Positions 23,638 through 38,177 of a stretch of 52,710 nucleotides of DNA are shown here, piece after piece. The position numbers were made by a program, and so were the translations under genes. Position 1 is the first letter of the stretch; each line of letters starts with the position of its first letter. The notes beneath the pieces are model-generated. The model worked only from the letters and a program-made list of their open reading frames with translations, had not been told where the DNA came from and searched no databases. The DNA lies in assembly GCA_016929805.1 (NCBI GenBank), contig JAFGIB010000290.1:1-52710 (forward strand). The letters run 5' to 3'. Origin of the DNA: Deltaproteobacteria bacterium (GTDB lineage: Bacteria; Myxococcota_A; Polyangia; Polyangiales; JAFGIB01).

Positions 23638-26283
23638 ATGGCATCCAAGAAGGGAAAAAAATACGTTTTCTTTTTCCGACCCGGCAAAGCAGAGGGCAAA
23701 GGAAATAACAAAAACCTACTCGGCGGCAAGGGCGCCGGCCTCGCCGAGATGTGTAACCTGGGTATTCCGGTACCTTCTGGATTCACCATCTCCACCGAGG
23801 CGTGCATCTACTACTTCAAAAACGGAAACAAGTGGCCCGTGGGGCTACAGCAAGAGGTGGATAAGAACATGGCCAAATTGGAATCGGGGATGGGAGCCCG
23901 ATTCGGCGACAGGGACAATCCTCTCTTGGTCTCGGTACGGTCAGGCGCGCGAGCCTCCATGCCGGGCATGATGGACACGGTGCTCAACCTCGGCCTAAAC
24001 GACAAAACCATCGCCGGGCTGATCAAACGCACCGACAATCCTAGGTTTGTTTACGACTCCTATCGCCGCTTTATCCATATGTTCTCGGACGTGGTGCTGG
24101 GTGTGGAAAAGGCGTTATTCGAGAAAGAGCTCTCCGCGTTGAAACAAGCAAAGGGGGTCGATCTCGATATGCAGCTTGACGCCGACGCCTTGATTCATCT
24201 CTGCGAACGCTATAAGGAAATCTTCAAAGCCCATACCGGGAAGGAGTTCCCGCAGGACCCGAAAAAACAGCTACAAATGGCGATTAACGCGGTATTCGGC
24301 TCTTGGAACAATAAGCGCGCCAAAGACTACCGAAGGCTTTATAACATCCCCGAGGACTGGGGCACCGCGGTCAACGTTCAAGCGATGGTGTTCGGCAACT
24401 CGGGAGACAAATCGGGTACGGGAGTGGCCTTCACCCGCAGCCCGTCCACGGGCGAAAACGTTTTCTTCGGCGAGTTTTTGGTCAACGCGCAAGGTGAAGA
24501 TGTGGTGGCGGGAATTCGCACGCCGCTTTCGATCGACGGTATGGGCAAGACCTTCCCGCAAGCTGCCGACAAGCTGCGCGCCATAGCGAAACGGTTGGAA
24601 AACCACTATCGCGACATGCTCGATCTCGAGTTCACGATTCAGGAAGAGACGCTTTATATGCTCCAGAGTCGCGTGGGCAAACGGACCGCGGCCTCGGCCA
24701 TCAAGATCGCGCATGATATGGTGCAGGAGAAACGCATTAAGAGGGAAGAGGCGGTGCTCAGGATTCACCCGTCGCAAATCGATCAACTACTGCATAAAAC
24801 CATTGATCCAAAGGCGACCCTGGAGGTGCTGACCACGGGGCTGCCGGCCTCGCCGGGCGCGGCGGTAGGACGGGTCGTTTTCAGCTCCGAGGAGGCCATT
24901 GAGCTACACGCGAAGGGTGAGCCCGCGCTTTTGGTTCGCTACGAGACCTCGCCGGAGGATCTCGCCGGCATGTCGGCGTCCGAGGGGATTTTGACGGTTC
25001 ACGGCGGGATGACCTCACACGCCGCGGTAGTCGCGCGCGGAATGGGCAAGTGCTGCGTAGCGGGCGCCGGCGAAATCGAGATGGACGAGGAAGACAAAAC
25101 CTTTAGCGTAAAGGGAGTCACGGTTCGCGCGGGCGATTGGTTGACCCTGGACGGAAGCGCCGGCCGAGTGATTCTCGGAAGCACCGATCTCGTCTCTCCC
25201 ACGCTTACCGGAGAATTCGGCACCATAATGCAGTGGGCCGACAAATTTCGCAGGCTAAAAATAAGAGCAAACGCCGATACGCCCGAGGACGCGACCTTGG
25301 CGCGCAAATTCGGAGCCGAGGGTATCGGTCTTTGCCGCACCGAGCACATGTTTTTCGCCGAGGATCGCATTCTCGCCGTCCGTCAGATGATCGTATCGGA
25401 TACCGATGATCAACGCGCTGTCGCCTTACAAAAGCTATTACCGATGCAGAAGAACGACTTCATCGGTATCCTCGAAGCGATGCAAGGGTTGCCGGTGACG
25501 ATTCGGCTTTTAGACCCACCGCTTCACGAATTTTTGCCCAAGACCAAAGCTTCGATCGAGAAGGTGGCCGAGGAGATGGGGATTTCCGCCGACGCGGTAG
25601 AAAGACGAGTGGAAGCGCTATCGGAGGCTAATCCCATGTTGGGCCACCGTGGATGCCGCCTCGGCATCACGCTATCGGCGATTTATGAAATGCAGGTTCG
25701 CGCGATTTTTGAGGCCACCGCGGAGCTCAAAAAGCGCAAGGTCGATGCCAGGCCGGAAGTCATGATCCCTCTCGTCGGGATAAAAAAGGAGCTTGAAATC
25801 TGCAAAGAGATGGTGATTCGCGTTGGCAAAGAGGTGCAAAAGGCGGAAGGCGTGAAGTTTCCCATCGAGGTCGGAACGATGATCGAGCTACCGCGCGCCT
25901 GCTTGGTCGCGGATCAGATAGCCGAGGAGGCGGAGTTTTTCTCTTTTGGCACCAACGATCTCACTCAAACGACCCTTGGTCTATCGCGCGATGACGCGGG
26001 AAGCTTCCTTCCCCACTACGTCGAGCGAGGGATTCTCCCCTATGATCCTTTCGCCAGCATTGACGAAGAGGGCGTGGGTTCGCTGATGAAGCTGGGAATC
26101 CAAAAGGGACGCAAGGTCAAGCCCAAGCTTAAGATCGGAATCTGCGGTGAGCACGGCGGCGATCCGAGGTCGGTGTCGTTCTGCCATGCCGTGGGGCTGA
26201 ACTACGTCAGTTGCTCCCCGTACCGGGTGCCCATCGCTCGGCTCGCGGCGGCGCACGCCGCCTTGGGCGAGAAACGCAAGTAG
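23638..26283 (+). CDS. ppdK: Pyruvate, phosphate dikinase
   Basis: LGGKGAGLAEM, VSVRSGA..SMPGMMDT, GGMTSHAAVVARG, GLCRTEHMF, SFGTNDLTQ, GICGEHGG. Confidence 0.98.
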   Translation: MASKKGKKYVFFFRPGKAEGKGNNKNLLGGKGAGLAEMCNLGIPVPSGFTISTEACIYYFKNGNKWPVGLQQEVDKNMAKLESGMGARFGDRDNPLLVSVRSGARASMPGMMDTVLNLGLNDKTIAGLIKRTDNPRFVYDSYRRFIHMFSDVVLGVEKALFEKELSALKQAKGVDLDMQLDADALIHLCERYKEIFKAHTGKEFPQDPKKQLQMAINAVFGSWNNKRAKDYRRLYNIPEDWGTAVNVQAMVFGNSGDKSGTGVAFTRSPSTGENVFFGEFLVNAQGEDVVAGIRTPLSIDGMGKTFPQAADKLRAIAKRLENHYRDMLDLEFTIQEETLYMLQSRVGKRTAASAIKIAHDMVQEKRIKREEAVLRIHPSQIDQLLHKTIDPKATLEVLTTGLPASPGAAVGRVVFSSEEAIELHAKGEPALLVRYETSPEDLAGMSASEGILTVHGGMTSHAAVVARGMGKCCVAGAGEIEMDEEDKTFSVKGVTVRAGDWLTLDGSAGRVILGSTDLVSPTLTGEFGTIMQWADKFRRLKIRANADTPEDATLARKFGAEGIGLCRTEHMFFAEDRILAVRQMIVSDTDDQRAVALQKLLPMQKNDFIGILEAMQGLPVTIRLLDPPLHEFLPKTKASIEKVAEEMGISADAVERRVEALSEANPMLGHRGCRLGITLSAIYEMQVRAIFEATAELKKRKVDARPEVMIPLVGIKKELEICKEMVIRVGKEVQKAEGVKFPIEVGTMIELPRACLVADQIAEEAEFFSFGTNDLTQTTLGLSRDDAGSFLPHYVERGILPYDPFASIDEEGVGSLMKLGIQKGRKVKPKLKIGICGEHGGDPRSVSFCHAVGLNYVSCSPYRVPIARLAAAHAALGEKRK

Positions 26284-26300
26284 TCCCCGGCGCTACCTTA

Positions 26301-26337
26301 ACCTTAACGTTGCAAAAGATCCGTCGGCGTAAACCGC
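26301..26337 (+). mobile_element. Family A partial copy (left end)
   Basis: ACCTTAACGTTGCAAAAGATCCGTCGGCGTAAACCGC matches 34285-34321 with two differences. Confidence 0.85.
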
Positions 26338-28658
26338 GGCGACTCCGTCGCTAACCCATGATTTGCGAGCGCCGCGTATTGAATTCGCTCCAACCAGTCC
26401 CGCGCTTGCTCTCGGTACAGCGCTTCACTCTCCCGCTCGAGCGTCGAGAAAAGCTCCCTCGCTCTACGAAAATCACCTAGCGCGTAACTCGATATGCCCT
26501 CAAGCCGCCGCGCTTCCAGGCTTAATCGTCTGCTCGGCAGCGCGGCCTGATTGGCCAGATGCAATAGCTTCGCCGCGGCTTCGAATCGCTGCCGAAAAAA
26601 GAGTTGCCTGGCCTCGAGATAATACGCCAAACCATCGCTTCTAACCTCTCTAAGCTCCCGCGCCAGGTAAACCGCCGTGACCGAGTCCGCCGCGACGCCG
26701 TCGCTTCCAACCAGAAGCTCGAACAACAGCTCGGCTTGCTCCGCCCCTGCCTCTAACGCTAATAATTTTACCTCGAGTAGCCTGGCCGCGTCGTTTTCGA
26801 GCGGCAACCGCAATAGATCGCGGTAGATCCGCAAGGCTTCGGTATCGCGGCCCAAGCGCCAGTGCGCATCCGCGATTTCTTGTCGCGCCGACGCCAGCAC
26901 CGGCGCCGGAGCCCGGTAATCGATCTGTAGCTTTTTCAACTCTCGCTCCGCCGCATCGAGCTCGCCGTTGCGCGCGAGCGAGCTAACAAGCTGCACGCGC
27001 GCATTCCGATCATTCGGGTCGATACCGAGAATTTCTCGGCACCTTTCAGAGGCTTCATCGTAGCTCTTCGCGGCTCGATCCGCTCCGAGCTGCGAGTGTA
27101 AACGCGCCAGCTTGTGCGGACAGACCGTAGAGAAGACGCTGCCTTGCGCGAATCGAGCCCGAGCGAGTTCCAACGCGGAATCGGGCAATGCGACCTGCAT
27201 GGCGAAGTCGCGCCACTTTTTTTCGAGCTCGTCCAACCCTACCCCGATGGCCGACGCGACATCTCCCGAGGCGTACAGCCTGCGAATCGCTCCCGCGCCG
27301 TATTCGTCCTTGATATAACGAACCAGCGAGCCCGATAAGTTGTACGCTCGCCTCTTGGATTGGCCGAAAAAACCCGCGCCAAACAGCTCTCGCAACCGCG
27401 GGGCCATGCCGATCTCGATCATCGCGCGCGACCATTGGTGCGGCGTCAGCTCGTCTGAATCGCTCCAGGCGGCCGCCACCGCCACCCCTTCGATAAGCGC
27501 CGGATTCGGCCACAATCCGCCGAAACGCCCGGCAATCCGAAACGGCCCGGCGCCGCAATTAGCCGCGACGATATGGGCGATTTCGTGAGCTAAGACCGGA
27601 TGCGGCCAGGCGTGTAATTGAAGATAAACCTGGCTGAGCCATGGCTTGGCGATGTAGGTGGTGTGAGCGCCCATCAACCGCCGTTTTTCCTCCGCGGAAC
27701 GAAAGAAGAAGGCAACCACGGGTTTCTGTTGGCGAACGCCGAACCACTTTTCCATCTGCGCCACGCGAAACTCGCACTCGGCCGCGAGCCGACGCGCTTC
27801 AGCGCGGTCAAGCTCCCTGGGGAAATGGGCGCGACATTTATTTATCTCGATTCGGGTCTCGAGCTGCTGTTCAATCCAGGCTTGCGTGCTGCGGTGACCG
27901 AGCTCAGGTCCGAACCATTGGGCAAGCGCCGCGACGGCGAAGGCCATCAATGCTAGGGATGATAAAAAAATCGATTCCGGGTCGCGGAATCCGGGTTTTA
28001 GTCGCTGCTCGAGCTTATCATAGGAAGAGACAAAGAGCGCGACTAGACCGCATCCCAGGACTAAGCTAACCGCTCGTAGCGTTAATAAAGCCGTCGGAAA
28101 ACCGATGTCTTCGTCGTAAAATGTCCCGGGAAAGAAACCGAAAAAATGACCGTATGCAAAAATAGCCGGCGTTTCGTAGAGACGGCCGAGCGCGATCGCG
28201 TAAGTGGCGAGCGGCAAGGCCACGGCCAGCGCCGTTGCCGCGCGCGAACGCGTGATCAAGCCGCCGATGACAACGCCGGCGAGACTCGAAAGAACCACCG
28301 AAAATACCGGACCGAGAACCATGAACAAAAGCCCTTGAAGCGGGCTGCAATTGCGTATCCTTAAGGAGTTCAGCGCTAAAAGCACCATGGGAATCGCGAC
28401 CACGACAACAGCCGCCCACACCGAAGCACCGAGAAGCCATATCGCACTGACCACTTGTTTTTCGCGTCTACAGCGAACCACCAAACGAGCGCCGATAAGC
28501 GCGGTGAAGGGCGGCAGAACGACGCCTAGAAGTAGAGCGCTTTCGACCCCATGCACGCCGAGCAACGGAACATAAGCGAGGCCGACCGCCACAAGGCCGG
28601 CGATAAACATCGCGAACTTGGTCGAAGTTAAGCTCAAAGCCTCGCGAGTTCGCTTCAC
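26304..28658 (-). CDS. Multi-TM membrane protein with gluzincin (peptidase MA-like) and TPR-like domains
   Basis: About 7 hydrophobic helices, HEIAH plus downstream LIEGVA, helical TPR-like C-terminus. Confidence 0.75.
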   Translation of the reverse strand: MKRTREALSLTSTKFAMFIAGLVAVGLAYVPLLGVHGVESALLLGVVLPPFTALIGARLVVRCRREKQVVSAIWLLGASVWAAVVVVAIPMVLLALNSLRIRNCSPLQGLLFMVLGPVFSVVLSSLAGVVIGGLITRSRAATALAVALPLATYAIALGRLYETPAIFAYGHFFGFFPGTFYDEDIGFPTALLTLRAVSLVLGCGLVALFVSSYDKLEQRLKPGFRDPESIFLSSLALMAFAVAALAQWFGPELGHRSTQAWIEQQLETRIEINKCRAHFPRELDRAEARRLAAECEFRVAQMEKWFGVRQQKPVVAFFFRSAEEKRRLMGAHTTYIAKPWLSQVYLQLHAWPHPVLAHEIAHIVAANCGAGPFRIAGRFGGLWPNPALIEGVAVAAAWSDSDELTPHQWSRAMIEIGMAPRLRELFGAGFFGQSKRRAYNLSGSLVRYIKDEYGAGAIRRLYASGDVASAIGVGLDELEKKWRDFAMQVALPDSALELARARFAQGSVFSTVCPHKLARLHSQLGADRAAKSYDEASERCREILGIDPNDRNARVQLVSSLARNGELDAAERELKKLQIDYRAPAPVLASARQEIADAHWRLGRDTEALRIYRDLLRLPLENDAARLLEVKLLALEAGAEQAELLFELLVGSDGVAADSVTAVYLARELREVRSDGLAYYLEARQLFFRQRFEAAAKLLHLANQAALPSRRLSLEARRLEGISSYALGDFRRARELFSTLERESEALYREQARDWLERIQYAALANHGLATESPRFTPTDLLQR

Positions 28659-28788
28659 GTCGCGTAACCGCGCGAGTCTGAGATGAGCTCGCCCCTCACG
28701 TCGCCGGTGGAAAGAACAATGAAAGAGCGAATTTCAAGTCGAATCCGACCATATTTCGTCGAAACGGCAATCGTTTCGTCTACGAGTG

Positions 28789-31188
28789 TCATATCGATTT
28801 ACCCGAGGTCACCGTGGCGAAGCTCTGAAAAGCCTCACGGTCGACGAAAACAAGCGGTAAGACTTCTTCTATTCGCGAGATGATATGCACTCGCAAATCC
28901 TCGCGAATTTGTTTTGGAACCTCCTCGAGGTCAGGTTGGTTTTGTTTAGGAATGATCACGTCTTTTATCTTACTACGGTGAGCGACCAGGCATTTCTGTT
29001 TGAGACCGTCAACGCGCAGCACGGCGCCGCTCAAAGTGATCTCCCCCGTTACCGCCACATCGGGCCGCACCTCCAATCGGGTGAGCATCGAAAGCAACGA
29101 AACGAAAACCGACAAACCAACCGCGGGGCCGTCCTTGGGAACGCCGCCTTTGGGGACGTGGACGTGAACGTCGATTTTACTCAGGAAATCCTGGTCAAGA
29201 CCGAATTTGTCCGCTCTAGCTCGGATAAAGTCTAACGCCGTTGCAGCCGACTCTTTTAAGACATTTCCGAGCTGACCGGTGAGCGAGACAACTCCCTTTC
29301 CGGGCATCTTTGAGCATTCGACCAGCAACAACTCCCCGCCCGAGGGTGTCCAGGTAAGGGAGGTCGAGAAGCCGGGCGCCAGTTTCGTTTCCGCAACCTC
29401 CATCTGCTGTTTTGGAGGCCCGTTTACTTGTTCGATATAGCTGCGATCAGCTTGAATTTGCACCGAGTCTCCATCGGCGAGACGAACCGCGACGCTGCGA
29501 CAAAGATTGGCGACATATTTTTCAAGCTGCCGAACGCCCGCCTCGTCCGTGTATTCGTCGATAAGATACTCGACGGAGTCATCCGGAATCTCCAGATGAT
29601 CCGGCGTCATACCGTGCTCGGATAGCTGTCGAGGAATCAGAAATTGACGGGCGATCTCCAGCTTCTCGTTTCGCATATACCCCGGAAGCTCAATCACCTC
29701 CATACGGTCTAGAAGCACGAAGGGAATCTTATCCTGTTGGTTGGCGGTGGCGATGAACAAAACCTGCGATAGATCGACGGGGACGTCCAAATAATGATCG
29801 ACAAAAGCGTGATTCTGTTCTGGATCCAACGCTTCCAGCAGGGCGGCGGCCGGATCTCCGCTAAAGCTGACTCCCATCTTGTCAACCTCGTCGAGAACGA
29901 ATACAGGATTGCGCACGTCCGCTTTCCTAAGCCCCGCGACGAGTCGTCCGGGCAACGCGCCGACATATGTCCGCCGATGCCCTCTGATCTCAGCCTCATC
30001 TTGAACCCCACCCAGCGAAATAACCAGATGCTTTCGCCCGAGCGCTCGGCCGATCGAACGTCCCAACGAGCTTTTTCCAACGCCCGGCGGCCCGATAAAA
30101 CAAAGAATAGGACCGCGTTTATCGCGGCGCAGCTTTCTCACCGCCATATACTCGACGATGCGTTGCTTCGCTTTTTCGATTCCGTGATGGTCCTCGTCCA
30201 AAACGCGCTGTACTTCGAATACTTCCAAACGGTCCGGTGTCAGTCGTTTCCACGGGATACTCACCAGCCAGCTAACATATTCGTACGCCACTTGATACTC
30301 GGAGCCGTGCGGGTTCATGCTGTTCATCCGCGACAACTCTCGCTTCGCCGCCTTCTCGACCTCAAGAGGCGGTTCCGCCTTGGTGAGTTTCTCTTGCAGC
30401 GCGTCGATCTCGTCGTCTTCTCCCTCGCCGTCCCCCAGCTCCCTGCGAATCGCTCGAAGCTGCTGCCGCAAGAGTAACTCCCTTTGAGAACCCGTGATTC
30501 CCTCCTGAACAATGGTCGCCACTTCTTGCTTGACGCGATGGATAGCGGACTGGCGTTTGATGAGCTCCAGCACCGTGCGCAATCGTTCGCGTAGATCCAA
30601 CGTCTCGAGAATCTGCTGTTTCTGTTCGGTCGAAATCGGCAAATTCGACGCGATAAGGTCGGCCAAAGCGCCCGCGTCCTGAACATTATCGAGCACGGCT
30701 CCGACTTCCTGGGGGGGTTGGGGAAGCAGTACAATTAGCTCGCGTGCGGACTCGCGAATCAGCGCGGTTAGCGCGTTGATCTCCTCGTCTCGAATATTCT
30801 TTTCGTATATACGTTCTACGCGAGCATAAAGGCACGGTTCGGAAGAGAGCGGCTCGATGACCTGCATACGCGCGATTCCCTGGAGAACCACGCTGAAATT
30901 GCCCGAGCTAAGTCTGATCGTCTTCAAGATTCGCGCGATCGTTCCGATGCGAAAAAGCGCGTCGAATTTCGGATCCTCGGTCTCCGGTTGATGTTGAGTC
31001 AAAACGCCAATCGTCGGTCGATCCATAGTCGAGACCTCTTCGATCAAGAAAACGGATCGTTTTCGACCCACGTTTACCGGAAAGACCGATGCCGGAAATA
31101 GGACCGAATTACGCAGCGCCATAATCGGTAGCGCATCCAGGCAATCAGGCGGAATACTGAGGTATTTTGGAGTTGTCGTTTCGTTCAC
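28789..31188 (-). CDS. lon: Lon (LonA) AAA+ protein, catalytic Ser replaced by Ala
   Basis: N-domain LPIMALRNSVLFP, Walker A GPPGVGKS, RGHRRTYVGA, Walker B LDEVDK; protease motif reads KDGPAVG. Confidence 0.95.
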   Translation of the reverse strand: MNETTTPKYLSIPPDCLDALPIMALRNSVLFPASVFPVNVGRKRSVFLIEEVSTMDRPTIGVLTQHQPETEDPKFDALFRIGTIARILKTIRLSSGNFSVVLQGIARMQVIEPLSSEPCLYARVERIYEKNIRDEEINALTALIRESARELIVLLPQPPQEVGAVLDNVQDAGALADLIASNLPISTEQKQQILETLDLRERLRTVLELIKRQSAIHRVKQEVATIVQEGITGSQRELLLRQQLRAIRRELGDGEGEDDEIDALQEKLTKAEPPLEVEKAAKRELSRMNSMNPHGSEYQVAYEYVSWLVSIPWKRLTPDRLEVFEVQRVLDEDHHGIEKAKQRIVEYMAVRKLRRDKRGPILCFIGPPGVGKSSLGRSIGRALGRKHLVISLGGVQDEAEIRGHRRTYVGALPGRLVAGLRKADVRNPVFVLDEVDKMGVSFSGDPAAALLEALDPEQNHAFVDHYLDVPVDLSQVLFIATANQQDKIPFVLLDRMEVIELPGYMRNEKLEIARQFLIPRQLSEHGMTPDHLEIPDDSVEYLIDEYTDEAGVRQLEKYVANLCRSVAVRLADGDSVQIQADRSYIEQVNGPPKQQMEVAETKLAPGFSTSLTWTPSGGELLLVECSKMPGKGVVSLTGQLGNVLKESAATALDFIRARADKFGLDQDFLSKIDVHVHVPKGGVPKDGPAVGLSVFVSLLSMLTRLEVRPDVAVTGEITLSGAVLRVDGLKQKCLVAHRSKIKDVIIPKQNQPDLEEVPKQIREDLRVHIISRIEEVLPLVFVDREAFQSFATVTSGKSI

Positions 31189-31337
31189 TTTAAGCTAACC
31201 CACGAAGCTCGACTCTATCTTAGCCAGCCGATAAAAGGGATGCCAGCTCTCACAATTGTAAAAAAACCTACAAACTTTTGACCTTTTCTACTCGTTTCGT
31301 AACATGGAACATAGGGCAAGGAAAATTAGGAGAATCT

Positions 31338-31490
31338 ATGAACAAGATCGCAAGCTCTACCAACGTAATCGCTCTTTTATTATCAATGACTGGTTGTAGT
31401 GGAGCGGTTTGGGGAAACCTTGCGATATTCGCCGTGAGTATTGGAATTTTTCTGGGAACGCTCTTTTTACACAAGCCTTCGTCCCAATAA
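31338..31490 (+). CDS. 50-aa small membrane lipoprotein-like protein
   Basis: AGGAGA RBS before ATG 31338; LLLSMTGC lipobox; second hydrophobic helix. Confidence 0.6.
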   Translation: MNKIASSTNVIALLLSMTGCSGAVWGNLAIFAVSIGIFLGTLFLHKPSSQ

Positions 31491-31605
31491 CCCTTAACTT
31501 TGCAAAAAATCCGTCGGCGTAAACCGCTTCGCTCGCGAAAAACAGCGCGAACTAATTCATCGCTTTTTTCGCGTGTCCGCTCGACGTTTTTTCCTACGCT
31601 AAGAT
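31491..31605 (+). mobile_element. Family A element lacking the inner hairpin
   Basis: Aligns to both ends of 34285-34475; TIRs degenerate. Confidence 0.85.
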
Positions 31606-31662
31606 AACGCCAGCGTACTCCATAAGCGCTATTAATAGAAACCACGCGATATGGATATAAGT

Positions 31663-33948
31663 CTACTTGGTAAAATCGCGACTAATCTCGGTTGTCTCAC
31701 CGGCGTTGATCGTTATCTTTTCGATATGAAGCTTATCGTCAGGCGTTCGTAAGCCGACATTATAGGTCCCCGCCCGAATCGGAAACGAAACGATCGGTGT
31801 GATTCGTCCTGTATCTTTGTCGTCGATAAAGACTCGCGCCCACGGAACCGAGTTTATCGATAGCATGCCCAGCTCATTTGCCTGGGAAGTAACGCGTGAC
31901 TTTTCTTTTTCCCGAGCATCCGAGGCGGTGAGATCGTCCGTAACCTTAACAGCGCTCGTCGAAATCTTCGGTTCCGTGCTTACCAGCGAGAACTCGAGAA
32001 TCGCGGTCGCGTTCTTCGTGAGATCCACTTGACGGGCGATTGGACGGTATCCTTCCGCGCGAATCTCAAGCGTTCGTTTTCCCACCGGAACGCCATCCAT
32101 TCTCATCGGCGTTCGACCGCGCTCTATGCCATCGAGCATTACGGTCGCCGGTATCGCCGGGGTTGTACGAATGACGATCGAACCGGTAGACGGTTGCCGC
32201 AATAGCTGCATGTAGATGAACATCGTAACCGCGATCGTGATCAAACCGACGCAGAGGCTGAGCGCCCAACCGGATTTCCACCACGGGGTAGAAGAAAGCT
32301 GCATCTGCACCGTTGGAATCCTCGCCTGCCGAACGCGGGGAGCGGCCGGTGCCGGCATGTAGCGCGCCTGGTACTGCGCAGGCGCCTGTCTTAGTATCTG
32401 GTACTGGGCACCGGGGGCTCGCTGGATCGCCGCGGGCTGAATGAAGGATACGGCAGGGCCTTCGGATTTGTCGCGGTCGCGGTAAAGCTCGTCGAGACCA
32501 ATCTCTTCTTCCTTGTTGAAGAAAATCTCCGTGGCGTCCTCGTCGAACTCGGTCTCGTATTTGAAAGCAGGAGCAAACAAGCCTTTCTCAGGTGGAACAA
32601 AACCCTCCTGCTCCTCGCTCGTATCGTTAATAACGGTGGGTTGGCTGCTGAAACGGTGCGCTGCGCTCTCGGCGCGCTCCTCGACCGGTGGATTCTTCAT
32701 ATCGTCGAGCTCTTCGATCTCCTCGTCGAGCTCCTTGAGATCCGCGCTCGGTTTGGCGAGCGAAGGAACTTTCGGCGGTGGAGGGATAGTGGGGACTTCG
32801 GAAGAATCCCGGCTGATGTCAACCCGAGAAACCGAGCGCATTCTATTTATGACCTCGGCGCGGGTAATCGCCGCCGCTCCCATGGGAGACGAGAAAAAGC
32901 GCCTGCGCTCAGCGATGATATTTGGATTTTTACTCGCTTCTAGTAACTCGTTAAGGCGCGCCTGTTCCGCCTCTTTTTCGGTTTCGAAAATCTCTTCCAT
33001 CCACGTGGAGAGCTGGCGCACTCCGAATCCTGGATGTTCCGCTGAAAGGTACGATTGCAGCGCGGTATTCATCTCATCCGCGGATTGCCAACGGTCGTCC
33101 GGTTCGCGCTCCAGCGCCCGCATGAGTATCATTTCGAGCTCTTCAGGCGGATCCTCGAGTAGCGCTGAAGGAGGCGGAACCGACGCTTGACTTACCAATT
33201 TGAGAACCGCGACGTCGTTGTTACCTGCAAACAGTTGCTTGGAGGTAACCATTTCGTATAGACAAACGCCGACGCCGAAAATATCGGAGCGAGCGTCTAG
33301 CCTTTTGCCTTTGACCATTTCCGGGCTCATGTAGCTCAGCTTCTTCTTCAGCGCGTCGACATTGGTCTGCTGCGCTTGTCCGACCGCTTTGGCAACCCCG
33401 AAATCGATCAGCTTTACGTCCCCTTCATAGCTGATCAAAATATTCGCTGGCGATAAATCTCGGTGAATAAAGCCGATTTGCTCTCCCTGTAGATTCTTTA
33501 AGTTGTGGGCGTAATCGAGCGCCTCGCACATCTTACTCGCCATCCACGCCGCCACCGAGGGCGGCATGTGTATGCCCTTTTTGATCAAGGTTTGATTGAT
33601 TCTGCCGAGATCTTTGCCGATGATACATTCCATCGCCATGTACATCGACTCGCCCACTTTTCCGAGCTCGAAGATGGGGCAGATGTTGGTATGGGTCAGG
33701 CGCGCCGCGGTCTTGGCTTCTTGGATAAAGGTACTGATAAATTCTTGGTCCCCGGCCATATGGGGCAAGATCCGCTTGAGCGCGGCGAGTCGCTCGAATC
33801 CCGCCTCGCCGTAGGCAATGCCGCGATAAACCGCAGCGGTCGCCCCGATACTTATTCGGTCTAAAAGGAGGTATTTTCCGAAGGGAATTAGCTCATTCGC
33901 CGACCAGCGGCTGTGCTCCTGTGCGGTTTGGTTTGGTAGGTTAATCAT
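31663..33948 (-). CDS. Hanks-type Ser/Thr kinase with TM helix and PEGA domains
   Basis: AALKRIL, HRDLSPAN, DFGVAK, YMSPE, DIFGVG; TM helix; two PEGA-like repeats. Confidence 0.92.
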   Translation of the reverse strand: MINLPNQTAQEHSRWSANELIPFGKYLLLDRISIGATAAVYRGIAYGEAGFERLAALKRILPHMAGDQEFISTFIQEAKTAARLTHTNICPIFELGKVGESMYMAMECIIGKDLGRINQTLIKKGIHMPPSVAAWMASKMCEALDYAHNLKNLQGEQIGFIHRDLSPANILISYEGDVKLIDFGVAKAVGQAQQTNVDALKKKLSYMSPEMVKGKRLDARSDIFGVGVCLYEMVTSKQLFAGNNDVAVLKLVSQASVPPPSALLEDPPEELEMILMRALEREPDDRWQSADEMNTALQSYLSAEHPGFGVRQLSTWMEEIFETEKEAEQARLNELLEASKNPNIIAERRRFFSSPMGAAAITRAEVINRMRSVSRVDISRDSSEVPTIPPPPKVPSLAKPSADLKELDEEIEELDDMKNPPVEERAESAAHRFSSQPTVINDTSEEQEGFVPPEKGLFAPAFKYETEFDEDATEIFFNKEEEIGLDELYRDRDKSEGPAVSFIQPAAIQRAPGAQYQILRQAPAQYQARYMPAPAAPRVRQARIPTVQMQLSSTPWWKSGWALSLCVGLITIAVTMFIYMQLLRQPSTGSIVIRTTPAIPATVMLDGIERGRTPMRMDGVPVGKRTLEIRAEGYRPIARQVDLTKNATAILEFSLVSTEPKISTSAVKVTDDLTASDAREKEKSRVTSQANELGMLSINSVPWARVFIDDKDTGRITPIVSFPIRAGTYNVGLRTPDDKLHIEKITINAGETTEISRDFTK

Positions 33949-34284
33949 ACTTCAACACAGAATCCGATAAGCGAGATGAAAGTTGCTTACACGAGAACAC
34001 CTGTCGGACATAGTAATTTATCCCAATCGATTCAGCAATCCGTATTGACCGCGGGGACGCTTATAATTCCATATACCGCCTAAAGATAGATAGCAAGAAA
34101 GGACCGGCGAATCCCCGCGTTTTCTTTCGAATTTCAGTCAAAGCGCGCGGCGCCGGAAGCTTCGTAAAAAATCGCCTCAGCTTGATTCGCGTCTCCCGCG
34201 TTGACGAAAGCGCGGCGACTTAAGGCGACTGTCGGAAATGACTTTACCGCTCGCGGCCGCATCCGCGGCCTATTTCCTATGTAA

Positions 34285-34475
34285 ACCTTGACGTTGCAAA
34301 AAATCCGTCGGCGTAAACCGCTTCGCTCGCGAAAAATAGCGCGAACTAGGGGCGTGCTCAACTTTTTTGGACCTCACTTAGGGTGCACTAAGCTGCGGTT
34401 CAAAAAAAGTTCCGCGCGCCCTTATTTCATCGCTTTTTTCGCGTGTCCGTTCGACGTTTTTTGCAACGTTAAGGT
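34285..34475 (+). mobile_element. Family A MITE-like element, longest copy (191 bp)
   Basis: 19-bp TIR (18/19) with nested inner inverted repeats. Confidence 0.9.
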
Positions 34476-34571
34476 AAAATTTTCGCAATAGCGCGGCTAT
34501 CGCCGCGGTTTTTCCGCGGTCACTCTTCCCGCGGTCGCGCCCGGTTGTGGCAAGGTTATTTATACAGCCTG

Positions 34572-36443
34572 CTAAGGATAGGTTTCATCGCGGGCGGTGA
34601 TAGAGTAGATCGAGCCGGAGTCGCTACCGCCCACGGGCGTTAGTTCGCAATCCACGTCCGCATCCTGGATCGCGATATCCACGACACGCCACATTTCCCC
34701 TGGTGTATCGAACCCTTGCAACGCGCTAAATTGTGGCTGGTCTTGCAGAGCGCGATCGGGCAATCCGCCGTAACTTCCTCGAAGCGCACCGTTGCAATAG
34801 ACGTTCACCAGTGGATGGGTTTCGATAGTCGGCAGTGGCACCCCGCTATCCGAAGTAATAGCGTCCGCCTTGATATTCGCGTAATACTCGACCATCACCC
34901 TGAACCTATCACCCGCTCGCGGATTATCGAGGTTAATGTTCTCGGTAACGTATTTCGACGCGGTCATATTTTTATTGTCGATATCGAGCCGGGGATTGGG
35001 ACAGTATTGCAGGAACTCGTGGTAGGCTTGATAGTTCGGCGCGTTTTCTCCGGTACAGCTTTCGAGATCAGTCGTGTTCTCGTAATCCCAAGGAGTATCA
35101 TCGCCGCGACAGGTTCTCTGATAGCAATCGGATTCTTCAAACCACGCAGCGGTGCCCGGTGTCCTGCCCAAATGCAGGTCGAGATCAACTCCTTCGCCGT
35201 TTCGCGTCGCGACATCTCCGGTTTTGTCCCAGCACAATTCCACGCGTAAGCCGGGAGCGCTGACGGACATAACCCAGGTACAACTAAAAGCGCTTTTGCC
35301 GTCTCTCTCTACCGTAAGCTTTACTTGGTACGCTCCGCTTAAGGAAAAGCTCACGATCGCGTTGCGTTGGTTCTCGCCCTCCAACTTGTAGCTCAAGGTT
35401 CCGCTCGAGGAGGTCGCGTTCGCGTCGATCGACTGAAAAAGCCTGTCGCAAGGCGAACCGGTAACCTCCCAGTGCCACTCGGTCGCGTCGTCTTTGTAGT
35501 AAAAATCCTCTCCGTTCAACCCATAGGTGGTAAAGGGCCGCGCTTTCGGCACCCGCGAATCGTCTCGCGTCGGACATTCGCCCTCGGGCACACAATCAGG
35601 AACCTCGTCGATACAACCGTTGCAGTCGTTATCCAGACCGTCGCATACCTCCTGGGAAGGCGATATGCTCTGCTCGCAGGGACCCCACCAAAAGGTAAAC
35701 TCCTGCACATACTGACAGACTTGGATACCGGACCTGCAAGCGCCTTGGCCGGCTCGGCTCGGCGGGCCTAAAAAGCAGGATTGGATCTTTCCGGCCACCT
35801 CGCAATCGCACTTCTCGTCCACCAGCCCGTCACAGTCGTTATCCAGACCGTCGCATAAACCGCCGACGTAACCTTCCTGGATATCCTCGAGACAACGCAC
35901 CGCGATCGGCGAACAAGAGTCTAAAGCTATCGGTCCGGCGTCACCCGGATCATACGCACCCTGACCGTCCTGCAGATCCGGAAAGGCCGTATCTTTTGAA
36001 ACATCGGGGACTATCGCGTCGAAGCCTCCCGCCTCCGGGAGTGGTGTATACGGCATCCTCGGGTTGAGATATCCGCAACCGATAAAGGTTCTCGGCCCGC
36101 AGGGCTCGGTTTTCAAATCATCGTCGCCCGCTTCTTCGATGTCCGGAACGCCGTCTCCGTCCGAGTCCTCATCCAGATAGTCCGGCGTACCGTCGTCATC
36201 GGTATCGCGCTCCTTACCCGTGCTATATACGCATGTGCTATCTTCAACTACACCCTCATGCTGATCACAGATAGTGTCGCAATCACAGTCTCTACAAACA
36301 TCCGTTTGCTGGCACGACTTTTCTTTCTCGTCGGCTTCGTCTTCTTTTTCCGCGCACCCCGAAGCGACCACCGCACACGCAGCGAGAACCGGCATCGCTA
36401 AACGAAGAAGGCTTCTTTTCCGTGTCATCGTCGATCGCCTCAA
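34572..36443 (-). CDS. Myxobacterial Cys/Asp-rich lipoprotein (CDGLDNDC motifs, YfaP-like C-terminus)
   Basis: Lipobox ASGC; DTDDDGTPDYLDEDSDGDG; two CDGLDNDC; DLDLHL..PRLDID..ENI. Confidence 0.75.
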   Translation of the reverse strand: MRRSTMTRKRSLLRLAMPVLAACAVVASGCAEKEDEADEKEKSCQQTDVCRDCDCDTICDQHEGVVEDSTCVYSTGKERDTDDDGTPDYLDEDSDGDGVPDIEEAGDDDLKTEPCGPRTFIGCGYLNPRMPYTPLPEAGGFDAIVPDVSKDTAFPDLQDGQGAYDPGDAGPIALDSCSPIAVRCLEDIQEGYVGGLCDGLDNDCDGLVDEKCDCEVAGKIQSCFLGPPSRAGQGACRSGIQVCQYVQEFTFWWGPCEQSISPSQEVCDGLDNDCNGCIDEVPDCVPEGECPTRDDSRVPKARPFTTYGLNGEDFYYKDDATEWHWEVTGSPCDRLFQSIDANATSSSGTLSYKLEGENQRNAIVSFSLSGAYQVKLTVERDGKSAFSCTWVMSVSAPGLRVELCWDKTGDVATRNGEGVDLDLHLGRTPGTAAWFEESDCYQRTCRGDDTPWDYENTTDLESCTGENAPNYQAYHEFLQYCPNPRLDIDNKNMTASKYVTENINLDNPRAGDRFRVMVEYYANIKADAITSDSGVPLPTIETHPLVNVYCNGALRGSYGGLPDRALQDQPQFSALQGFDTPGEMWRVVDIAIQDADVDCELTPVGGSDSGSIYSITARDETYP

Positions 36444-36584: not shown

Positions 36585-38177
36585 TTATTCGGCTTGCATC
36601 GTTACCGGAACCACGTCGATCGCGCTCTCGGACTTATCGAGGATCAAGCGATAGACTCTGCCGTTGCGCGTGTCCAAGTCAGCGTCCGGAACCTCGTCGG
36701 ATAAATTAGTTACCACGATCAGCACCCTATCCGTTTCTCGAGTCAGCTCGAGCGCGAGATAGCTGTTCGGATCTCTTCTCGCCGGCACCGCCATCCTTCC
36801 GAGCTCTTGCCCCTCTTTGGACAACCTAATCGCGATCAGCGACCAGCGTCCCCCGTGCTCTCCGCGAAGCCATATCTTCAATTGAAGGGGAAATAGTGCT
36901 TGAGCGGTATCGACCATCGTATAGCCGCTGCCGTAGGTCTCTAAAGGTGGGTCCGAAACCGGTAGGTGTTTTGGTAACTGGGCGATCGAAATCGGACCGA
37001 GCACCGGCACCCGTCCATCTTCTCGTAGGGTTTTGAACGCGCAAAAAGGAGCACGGCGGCGGCGCGGCTCAGAACCGGCGAAATAGCGTGCAACCGCAAT
37101 ATCTTCCACGATTTCCACCAAAGAATCGCCGGCGTTTTTCAGCGCCTTATCTAACGCCTCCCAGAGGTCGGGAGAACCGCGCAGCCAGCGCTTATCCTCG
37201 CTCTTCTGCCTGGCGAATTGCCATAACTCGCGCAAGAACGTCCCACTTCCACCGTCTGCTCTTTCCGACAACGCGGCCAGGAATAAAGCGCCACCCTCGC
37301 CATATTCAAGCGAGTCGGTAATCCACCCCTGCCAGGGATTCTCTTGCTTCATTTCGACATCGTCGTCACAGCCGTAACGGCCGGAGATCAACCACGCGAC
37401 ATAGGCGCCGGTCGCGCGGCGCCAAGCCTCTGCTTCCGCCGGGTCCTGGCCGAGCAACACCGCTTGAACCAGCGCGGAGACGACGCACGCCTGCAATCGG
37501 TCTGAAGAGACGCTCGCGTCGACGACGGCGTATGTCGAGGCGCTGTCGAGCAACGACCAAGCGACCGGCGCATCGACGAACGCCCTGGTAGATAGCGCGC
37601 TTTGCGAGATCAGATAAAGGTCAAAAGAAGCGGTACCCCCGTATCCTCCGTCGGCGACCGGTTCGGGCCACCCGGTCTCGATGAGCAGCGTGTACGCTTG
37701 CTCGAGCGCGGCCAGGGTTTCGTGAACCCTTTTTTCCGAAACCGCGGGAGGCGCGTGTACACAAAGCGGATATCTTTCAGACTGCAGCATCCACCCCTGG
37801 TCATCGGGCCGCGACACTCGCTGCGGGTAGGGAACAGTCGGTCCTTTCCATCGTCCCTGACCGACCGCCCACTGTGCCCACATTTCGATCGGAGAGACTT
37901 GAGCTGTTGTTTTTGGTGTCGCGGTCAATAGCAAAAGCGCCACGACGACGATCGCCGTCTTGGTTTTTCCCAACTGATGCCCTAAGCCGAACGCGCGACG
38001 ATGGGATCGATGACACAACGGTTTTGGCCGCTGATGCATGCCGCGCGCGCGTTTTATCGGCTGAGACGATTGCGGCGGTGTGAATGGCAGAGCACGGCAA
38101 CGGACTCGTATCTCCAAGCTACGCGGGTCGCGCGCTGACAAATCCTCTATAGCTTCGGTCTGATCCACCTGACCCAT
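36585..38177 (-). CDS. Exported protein resembling MXAN_6640/DUF6055-type zincins without HExxH; true start probably downstream
   Basis: DGGYGG..FDLYL, then a helix and W..ATG, YGEG.ALF; signal-like VVVALLLL segment. Confidence 0.55.
   Translation of the reverse strand: MGQVDQTEAIEDLSARDPRSLEIRVRCRALPFTPPQSSQPIKRARGMHQRPKPLCHRSHRRAFGLGHQLGKTKTAIVVVALLLLTATPKTTAQVSPIEMWAQWAVGQGRWKGPTVPYPQRVSRPDDQGWMLQSERYPLCVHAPPAVSEKRVHETLAALEQAYTLLIETGWPEPVADGGYGGTASFDLYLISQSALSTRAFVDAPVAWSLLDSASTYAVVDASVSSDRLQACVVSALVQAVLLGQDPAEAEAWRRATGAYVAWLISGRYGCDDDVEMKQENPWQGWITDSLEYGEGGALFLAALSERADGGSGTFLRELWQFARQKSEDKRWLRGSPDLWEALDKALKNAGDSLVEIVEDIAVARYFAGSEPRRRRAPFCAFKTLREDGRVPVLGPISIAQLPKHLPVSDPPLETYGSGYTMVDTAQALFPLQLKIWLRGEHGGRWSLIAIRLSKEGQELGRMAVPARRDPNSYLALELTRETDRVLIVVTNLSDEVPDADLDTRNGRVYRLILDKSESAIDVVPVTMQAE

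Follow-up and report, generated by a model that had tools for sequence, protein, structure and literature searches.

Lon mutants in which the catalytic serine is replaced by alanine are a standard laboratory tool for separating the Lon motor from the protease. They are proteolytically dead, keep ATPase activity and substrate binding, and can sequester substrates. Yeast Pim1 with the Ser-to-Ala change, and sequestration by E. coli Lon S679A, reportedly show that Lon without its serine still does useful ATP-dependent work. Dead paralogues also exist in other protease families, ClpR being a pseudo-protease relative of ClpP, and FtsHi of FtsH. Here, we describe a natural LonA with alanine at the position of the catalytic serine. 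It is encoded in contig JAFGIB010000290.1 of a sediment myxobacterium of the order Polyangiales (GenBank assembly GCA_016929805.1). The whole stretch analysed, 52,710 nucleotides, is called the window below, and the LonA paralogue lineage to which the gene belongs is called clade D.

The accessible part of a survey of Lon active centres (PMC9569914) describes the A-type centre of LonA, in which 42 residues separate the catalytic Lys from the Ser (Ser position + 43) and Pro always precedes the Ser. The survey states that no new Lon active-centre variants were identified; clade D holds Ala, Gly and DGA-S forms. The same source describes LonC of Meiothermus taiwanensis (MEROPS S16.007), which lacks ATPase residues and keeps the protease. 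LonC and clade-D Lon are mirror images, with one activity naturally lost in each: clade-D Lon loses the protease nucleophile and would keep the ATPase. Plant FtsHi, as described in the accessible part of its source (PMC8197885), is a dead paralogue kept by selection beside active ones, as in clade D. However, FtsHi and ClpR act within hetero-oligomers or a different complex, and both the family (Lon) and the phylum differ here. The literature searched, outside which most subscription journals and supplements lay, yielded no account of a naturally occurring Ser-to-Ala LonA.

A sequence-only reading of the window had reported a full-length Lon with codon GCG, and thus alanine, at residue 689, the position of the catalytic serine. 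This was confirmed by reading the DNA and by alignment to solved structures. The features of the gene are:

28789..31188, minus strand: clade-D LonA paralogue, 799 amino acids, full length, GTG start, no internal stop

29122..29124, minus strand: codon GCG, Ala689, at the position of the catalytic Ser (E. coli S679); DNA read and HMMER alignment

28993..28995, minus strand: codon of Lys732, the catalytic Lys of the Ser-Lys dyad (Ser position + 43), retained

28846..29445, minus strand: Lon_C protease-fold domain, residues 582-781 (PF05362, 1.8e-70)

29692..30105, minus strand: AAA+ ATPase core, residues 362-499 (PF00004 (AAA), 5.9e-19)

30070-30093, minus strand: Walker A (GPPGVGKS), intact

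29959-29976, minus strand: pore loop RRTYVG, intact

29878-29898, minus strand: Walker B (VLDEVDK), intact

30553..31131, minus strand: LON N-terminal substrate-binding domain, residues 20-212 (PF02190 (LON_substr_bdg), 9.1e-46)

Within 28789..31188, minus strand: Lon_lid, residues 524-574 (Pfam)

Minus-strand bases 29139-29116 read ccc aag gac ggc ccc gcg gtt ggt, that is P684 K685 D686 G687 P688 A689 V690 G691. HMMER alignments to solved structures of LonA place A689 over the catalytic Ser of Thermus 7p6u ('pkdgpsag') and over the Ala of E. coli 6u5z ('pkdgpaag'), which we take to be the engineered S679A form. The uninterrupted frame, the intact Walker A/B and RRTYVG motifs, and the drifted VDGLKQK, where canonical enzymes have GG[ILV]KEK, were likewise verified as first read. 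K732 is the second K of VDGLKQK. With K732 and P688 in place, the spacing of the A-type centre is preserved; of the Ser-Lys dyad, the catalytic Ser is lacking (Ala689). By comparison, Ser occupies the site in 43/43 canonical LonA paralogues from the window genome and its relatives.

The rest of the protein is that of a complete LonA. It scores 860.1 bits with TIGR00763 (endopeptidase La, NCBIfam; cut-off 608.05) and covers model positions 1-795 of 795, and its Lon_C match spans profile positions 4-203 of 205 (PF05362). Sensor-1, Arg finger and sensor-2 were all found. BrxL, the Lon-related BREX protein (TIGR02653), is not a match for the window Lon (49.9 bits, below the cut-off of 628.25), and the missing essential ATPase residues that define LonC are not seen, all motifs being intact. 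Canonical LonA (TIGR00763; Thermus thermophilus 7p6u, E 5.6e-198) has the same three-domain architecture and all motor motifs, with ~50% identity to the sister paralogue, but unlike it the window Lon has no nucleophile. Judged on its sequence, the gene is a LonA by homology and, by the catalytic criterion, a non-peptidase homologue of family S16, not endopeptidase La.

E. coli Lon S679A, the engineered form used as a standard proteolysis-dead substrate trap (6u5z; 655 bits to the query), is a close counterpart, with the same residue change in an otherwise complete LonA (PKDGPAAG) and with the dyad Lys and ATPase intact. In contrast to it, the change in the window is a natural one that a family-level clade conserves under purifying selection. 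Clade D also adds changes round the dyad (A690 to V/M/L, T693S, T696V, M713V, P725R, G727D, E731Q). The Pim1 and S679A cases of chaperone function are laboratory mutants, whereas clade D is a natural lineage.

Five LonA genes of the window genome (6.2 Mb in 462 contigs, 88.8% complete) exceed the TIGR00763 cut-off. The intact lon paralogue that the sequence-only reading had proposed to look for is thus present four times, as full-length genes (L001-L004) on contigs C80, C168, C9 and C272, all reading PKDGPSAG and GG[ILV]KEK. A very long branch (1.46-1.86 changes per site) leads to the C80 copy.

An orthologous clade with alanine, which that reading had also proposed to look for, was found as well. 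In a search of 40 relatives, the best match was 51-68% identical in most genomes, and the next paralogue ~50%. A scan of genome contigs with the single protein left, out of 244 pattern matches, one weak and unrelated locus (Megamonas, 26% identity). Within the family of the window genome, an orthologue was present in 13 of the 14 other genomes, and not found in G008 (92% complete). Twelve of these orthologues have Ala and one has Ser (G011, L019), so that 13/14 carry Ala when the window gene is included. The query and its 120 nearest proteins in a collection of 5.8 billion sequences comprise 84 with Ala and 37 with Ser. Their sources label them 'endopeptidase La' and assign them to Polyangiales, Sandaracinaceae, Myxococcales or Myxococcota metagenome bins. 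The sole cultured species among the nearest proteins listed, Sandaracinus amylolyticus (P0099), has Ser at the site. Two close relatives with Ala, P0003 (85% identical, DGPAAG) and P0004 (DGPAVG), were assembled independently, and a base-calling error is therefore untenable. In the ~56% that was read of a DNA run, possibly from the source sample and available as contigs, two short stretches matched at 90-95% likeness, neither of them over the codon, and two RNA runs of the same study gave no match.

In a tree of 74 LonA genes from the window genome and relatives, the window gene fell into the 31-row clade D (support 100). Its sister, clade B, consists of 20 rows of canonical Lons, including the C168 paralogue of the window genome. 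An IQ-TREE analysis of 65 rows recovered clade D with 21 rows, again with support 100. Beyond the order, four genomes of the same class and one of another class contributed 15 LonA genes. Each of these has Ser and falls outside clade D, and the best matches from these genomes join clade B. On this placement, clade D is a paralogue lineage restricted to this myxobacterial order in the sample taken. Natural Ser losses in LonA were sampled within this phylum.

Serine was lost within clade D. The basal members (families f17, f10, f16) retain the canonical PKDGPSAG/GGIKEK, and 40 clade-D genes, taken from as many species-level genomes in the order, have Ala (19), Gly (2) or Ser (19) at the site. 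Some Ser-bearing members (L031, L059, P0100, P0104) have Arg for the catalytic Lys ('KQR', 'RER', 'KER'), and L015/P0061 has Glu at the K730 position. From their sequences, these forms are probably other routes to a dead or altered site in clade D.

Ser and Ala have interchanged repeatedly. On a tree of 153 rows (143 clade-D and 10 outgroup rows, some of them near-identical pairs of genome locus and database protein), the site was Ala in 92, Ser in 59 (10 of them outgroup) and Gly in 2, with no other residue. Parsimony requires at least 19 changes between Ser and non-Ser. In an IQ-TREE analysis of the subclade of the window gene (47 rows and 6 outgroups), the Ser tips L019, P0059, P0069 and P0116 were each sister to Ala tips, with Shimodaira-Hasegawa-like approximate likelihood ratio test (SH-aLRT) support of 97-100. 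Constraining these four tips to one clade was rejected by the approximately unbiased (AU) test (delta log-likelihood 578, p-AU 1.3e-8). Read from this topology, four of the interchanges are Ala-to-Ser reversals.

The codons carry a record of direction. Ser is encoded by AGC or AGT in the canonical and basal clade-D genes, with the exceptions L054 and L102 (TCG). Where Ser members sit within Ala lineages, their codon is TCG or TCC, a single step away from GCN, and the codons of the two Gly forms are GGA and GGG. The simplest history suggested by these codons is an ancestral Ser(AGY) that changed to Ala(GCN) and from there occasionally to Ser(TCN). A site that admits Ala, Ser and Gly alone fits a structural constraint on the turn without a constraint for catalysis.

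The gene is under purifying selection. The sequence-only reading had asked for the ratio of nonsynonymous to synonymous substitution rates (dN/dS) per domain, and would have been undone by a change private to this genome under relaxed selection. What was found is the reverse on both counts. For six pairs of the Ala clade, dN/dS by the Nei-Gojobori method (NG86) was 0.035-0.23 overall, with no relaxation to neutrality. The protease domain gave 0.064-0.375, always the highest of the three domains and still far below 1. The comparison of domain identities, which has no dependence on dS, agrees. For six matched pairs drawn from four genomes, protease-domain identity was 56-67% in clade D versus 82-93% in canonical clade B, AAA+ identity 69-83% versus 83-90%, and N-domain identity 60-76% versus 77-90%.

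Constraint was also counted at positions with a conservation of 95% or more across 43 canonical LonA. The 92 Ala-bearing members of clade D retain 96/101 of these positions in the AAA+ domain, 25/30 in the N-domain and 37/57 in the protease domain. The 49 Ser-bearing members retain 92/101, 24/30 and 37/57, respectively; clade D as a whole thus differs from canonical LonA in keeping 37/57 of the invariant protease positions. In the Ala clade, conservation reaches ~100% at Walker A and B, pore loop, sensor-1, Arg finger and sensor-2. By these counts, the motor is fully constrained in clade D. The constraint on the protease domain is loosened clade-wide, Ser bearers included, and apparently was so before or independently of the Ser loss. 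The changes in this domain concentrate round the dyad (A690, T693, T696, M713, P725, G727, E731, G610, A612, M644), and K732 (92/92), K685, D686, E716, H675, H677, E624 and E646 are invariant in the Ala members. As with FtsHi and ClpR, a catalytic residue has been lost, selection is purifying, and active paralogues are found alongside.

With modest confidence, we read the window gene as a selected, peptidase-dead LonA that works as an ATP-dependent unfoldase or holdase, most simply as a homo-hexamer. Peptide cleavage at the canonical site would be impossible because the nucleophile is Ala, and the behaviour of engineered Ser-to-Ala Lon suggests by analogy that peptidase activity is absent. ATPase activity, hexamer formation and the unfoldase/holdase role are inferred likewise. 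The N-domain would recognise a substrate, which the intact pore would then unfold and translocate using ATP. In this way the protein may bind, unfold, remodel or sequester particular proteins. Its protease-fold domain would remain in use as ring and chamber, and perhaps as a peptide-binding site, while proteolysis would be left to the four canonical Lon paralogues of the same cell. The sequence-only reading had named three candidate roles, those of an unfoldase, a substrate trap and a regulatory subunit of active Lon.

The neighbouring genes on the same strand bear on what such a protein might do:

26304..28658, minus strand: gene downstream of lon, 784 amino acids, seven transmembrane (TM) helices, gluzincin-fold HExxH...E and tetratricopeptide repeats (TPR); 130 nucleotides (nt) after lon, same strand

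27573-27587, minus strand: HEIAH motif of the downstream protein

27489-27491, minus strand: Glu390 of the downstream protein

31663..33948, minus strand: Ser/Thr protein kinase with two PEGA domains, upstream of lon

An orthologue of the downstream gene was the next same-strand gene in 20/20 clade-D loci fetched with flanks (30-50% identity; gaps between high-scoring segment pairs of 36-363 nt). A Ser/Thr kinase gene lies upstream of clade-D lon in 12/20 loci (≥230 bits). Two small family-f3 genomes without clade-D lon have the kinase directly upstream of the HExxH/TPR gene instead. Further upstream, two open reading frames (ORFs) have no clear family (34572-36443, minus strand, 623 amino acids; 36585-38177, minus strand, 530 amino acids). 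The former has only a MopE-like metal-binding motif that scores below threshold, and in 6/20 related loci its orthologue occurs together with the kinase. A scan of 26000-34500 gave three promoter-like sites (shuffles 4.0 ± 1.9) and 15 terminator-like sites (11.7 ± 4.0), none above chance. In the same scan, no promoter- or terminator-like site was found in the gap between lon and its partner.

With the whole downstream protein, TPR models alone matched among Pfam and NCBIfam, with no peptidase model, and a profile search of the Protein Data Bank gave no match below E 1. Peptidase_MA_2 matched one of 21 family members (E 0.015). H358, E359, H362 and E390 are invariant in 21/21 aligned sequences. 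AlphaFold modelled the whole protein with a predicted local distance difference test score (pLDDT) of 90, a predicted template modelling score (pTM) of 0.87 and seven N-terminal TM helices; an AF2 model of the peptidase domain only had a pLDDT of 89.9. The best structural match of this domain model was Vibrio M9 collagenase 7wss (VIA Z 16.2, root-mean-square deviation 3.5 Å, 226 residues aligned), with further matches to M30 lugdulysin (Z 13.0), clostridial collagenases (Z 12-13), M1 aminopeptidases (Z 10-12) and thermolysin (Z 7.5). The top of the structural list consisted entirely of zinc metallopeptidases (Foldseek E 1.4e-4). Foldseek with the whole protein gave chiefly TPR matches, and weak peptidase matches. 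The protein thus has the HExxH and Glu ligand of a clan MA gluzincin and, as modelled, the gluzincin fold. The soluble part has a BepA-like protease-plus-TPR layout.

The peptidase and TPR domains are probably periplasmic, across the membrane from Lon, because the loops carry 14 Lys and Arg residues on the N-terminal side of the membrane versus 3 on the other, and because the invariant C104, C275, C295 and C513 all lie on the predicted outer side. The family of the downstream protein is unannotated, phylum-wide and single-copy, and was found in 117/201 Myxococcota genomes sampled. When sampled via this partner gene, lon was directly upstream in 9/13 same-order genomes and in 0/27 loci outside the order (3 of them ended at contig ends). 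Outside the order, this upstream position mostly holds the gene of a HEAT-repeat protein of 765-860 amino acids (7/9 ORFs scanned; L118-L124, L128, L134). The HEAT-repeat gene and the membrane HExxH/TPR gene form a second conserved pairing. Within clade D, basal lon genes adjoining the partner still read PKDGPSAG, and the pairing is therefore older than the Ser loss. The HExxH...E motif of the partner does not covary with the Ser/Ala state of Lon. The conserved place just upstream of the gene for a membrane gluzincin/TPR protein suggests that clade-D Lon has a function connected with the envelope.

Several other explanations were weighed. A sequencing or assembly error, or a decaying pseudogene, would be easy to imagine for a codon one base from TCG (GCG). 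Yet the Ala is common to independently assembled relatives down to ~60% identity, the frame is open over its full length, and dN/dS is far below 1; we give this explanation practically no weight, and it was rejected on the relatives with Ala, the intact frame and the purifying selection. It is also very improbable that the window Lon still is a protease, using another nucleophile or a Lys-activated water. Lys732 and the rest of the pocket are conserved, as such an enzyme would need, but no Ser or Thr nearby is conserved (693 is Ser in 43% of the Ala members, and 690 is M, L, V or A), and engineered Ser-to-Ala Lon is proteolytically dead. Mixed hexamers deserve more consideration, although they too are rather unlikely. 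The dead Lon would then be a regulatory or structural subunit, tuning processivity or substrate choice together with one of the four active LonA paralogues. An active paralogue is always present alongside (four in the window genome; clade B in the relatives sampled), the ring-forming protease domain is under purifying selection, and pocket residues other than Ser are retained. On the other hand, the nearest active paralogue is only ~50% identical, the protease domain, which would be the shared ring interface, diverges fastest, and we know of no Lon hetero-hexamer.

The genomic neighbourhood raises the possibility of a two-gene protease with split FtsH-like logic, in which the dead Lon would be the ATP motor and the neighbouring membrane gluzincin would cut. 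The recurrent gene order (20/20 clade-D loci, and 9/13 same-order genomes via the partner), the HExxH...E motif invariant in 21/21 sequences and the gluzincin fold (VIA Z 16.2 to M9 collagenase) speak for such a pair. We nevertheless consider it improbable. Seven TM helices and the loop charges would place the peptidase and TPR domains in the periplasm, on the opposite side from Lon. Moreover, the pairing antedates the Ser loss, the partner occurs phylum-wide without Lon (117/201 genomes; lon upstream in 0/27 loci outside the order), and its motif is invariant whatever the state of Lon. Direct hand-over of unfolded chains to the partner peptidase was set aside as unlikely, given the predicted topology and the order of events. 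A more elaborate arrangement, which we regard as more improbable still, would be a machine spanning the envelope, driven from the cytoplasm by clade-D Lon as its ATP motor. The catalytically silent protease ring of Lon would bind to the 7-TM domain of the partner, and unfolded chains or cytoplasmic portions of the partner would be pulled or threaded in concert with the periplasmic gluzincin/TPR module. The Ser/Ala interchange would then be an evolutionary on/off switch of Lon cleavage within this machine.

The reading as a peptidase-dead unfoldase or holdase has its own difficulties. The rest of the active-site pocket is well kept in the Ala members (K732 in 92/92; K685, D686, E716, H675 and H677 in 100%). 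This, together with the Ser regains, would be easier to grasp if the pocket still acts, in peptide binding, allostery or latent catalysis. Some of the supporting numbers are also soft. The NG86 values are rough, with dS saturated or undefined in many pairs. The large trees were made with FastTree or quick IQ-TREE runs, and their rows include near-identical, non-independent pairs. Finally, the group of four Ser tips in the AU test was named after the tree had been viewed.

As far as genes and trees tell, clade D shows an order-restricted origin, a pre-existing loosening of the protease domain, repeated reversions with a codon signature, and a periplasmic prediction for the partner. This last prediction tempers the idea of a motor for the metallopeptidase. 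The automatic 'endopeptidase La' labels on these clade-D genes are wrong as enzyme names. Whether Lon has a selected function independent of proteolysis is an old question, for which this myxobacterial order, with its constrained motor and dispensable nucleophile, would be a natural experiment. Matched natural pairs, such as SKDGPALG versus AKEGPSLG at ~91% identity, may allow a direct look at the protease-independent role of Lon.

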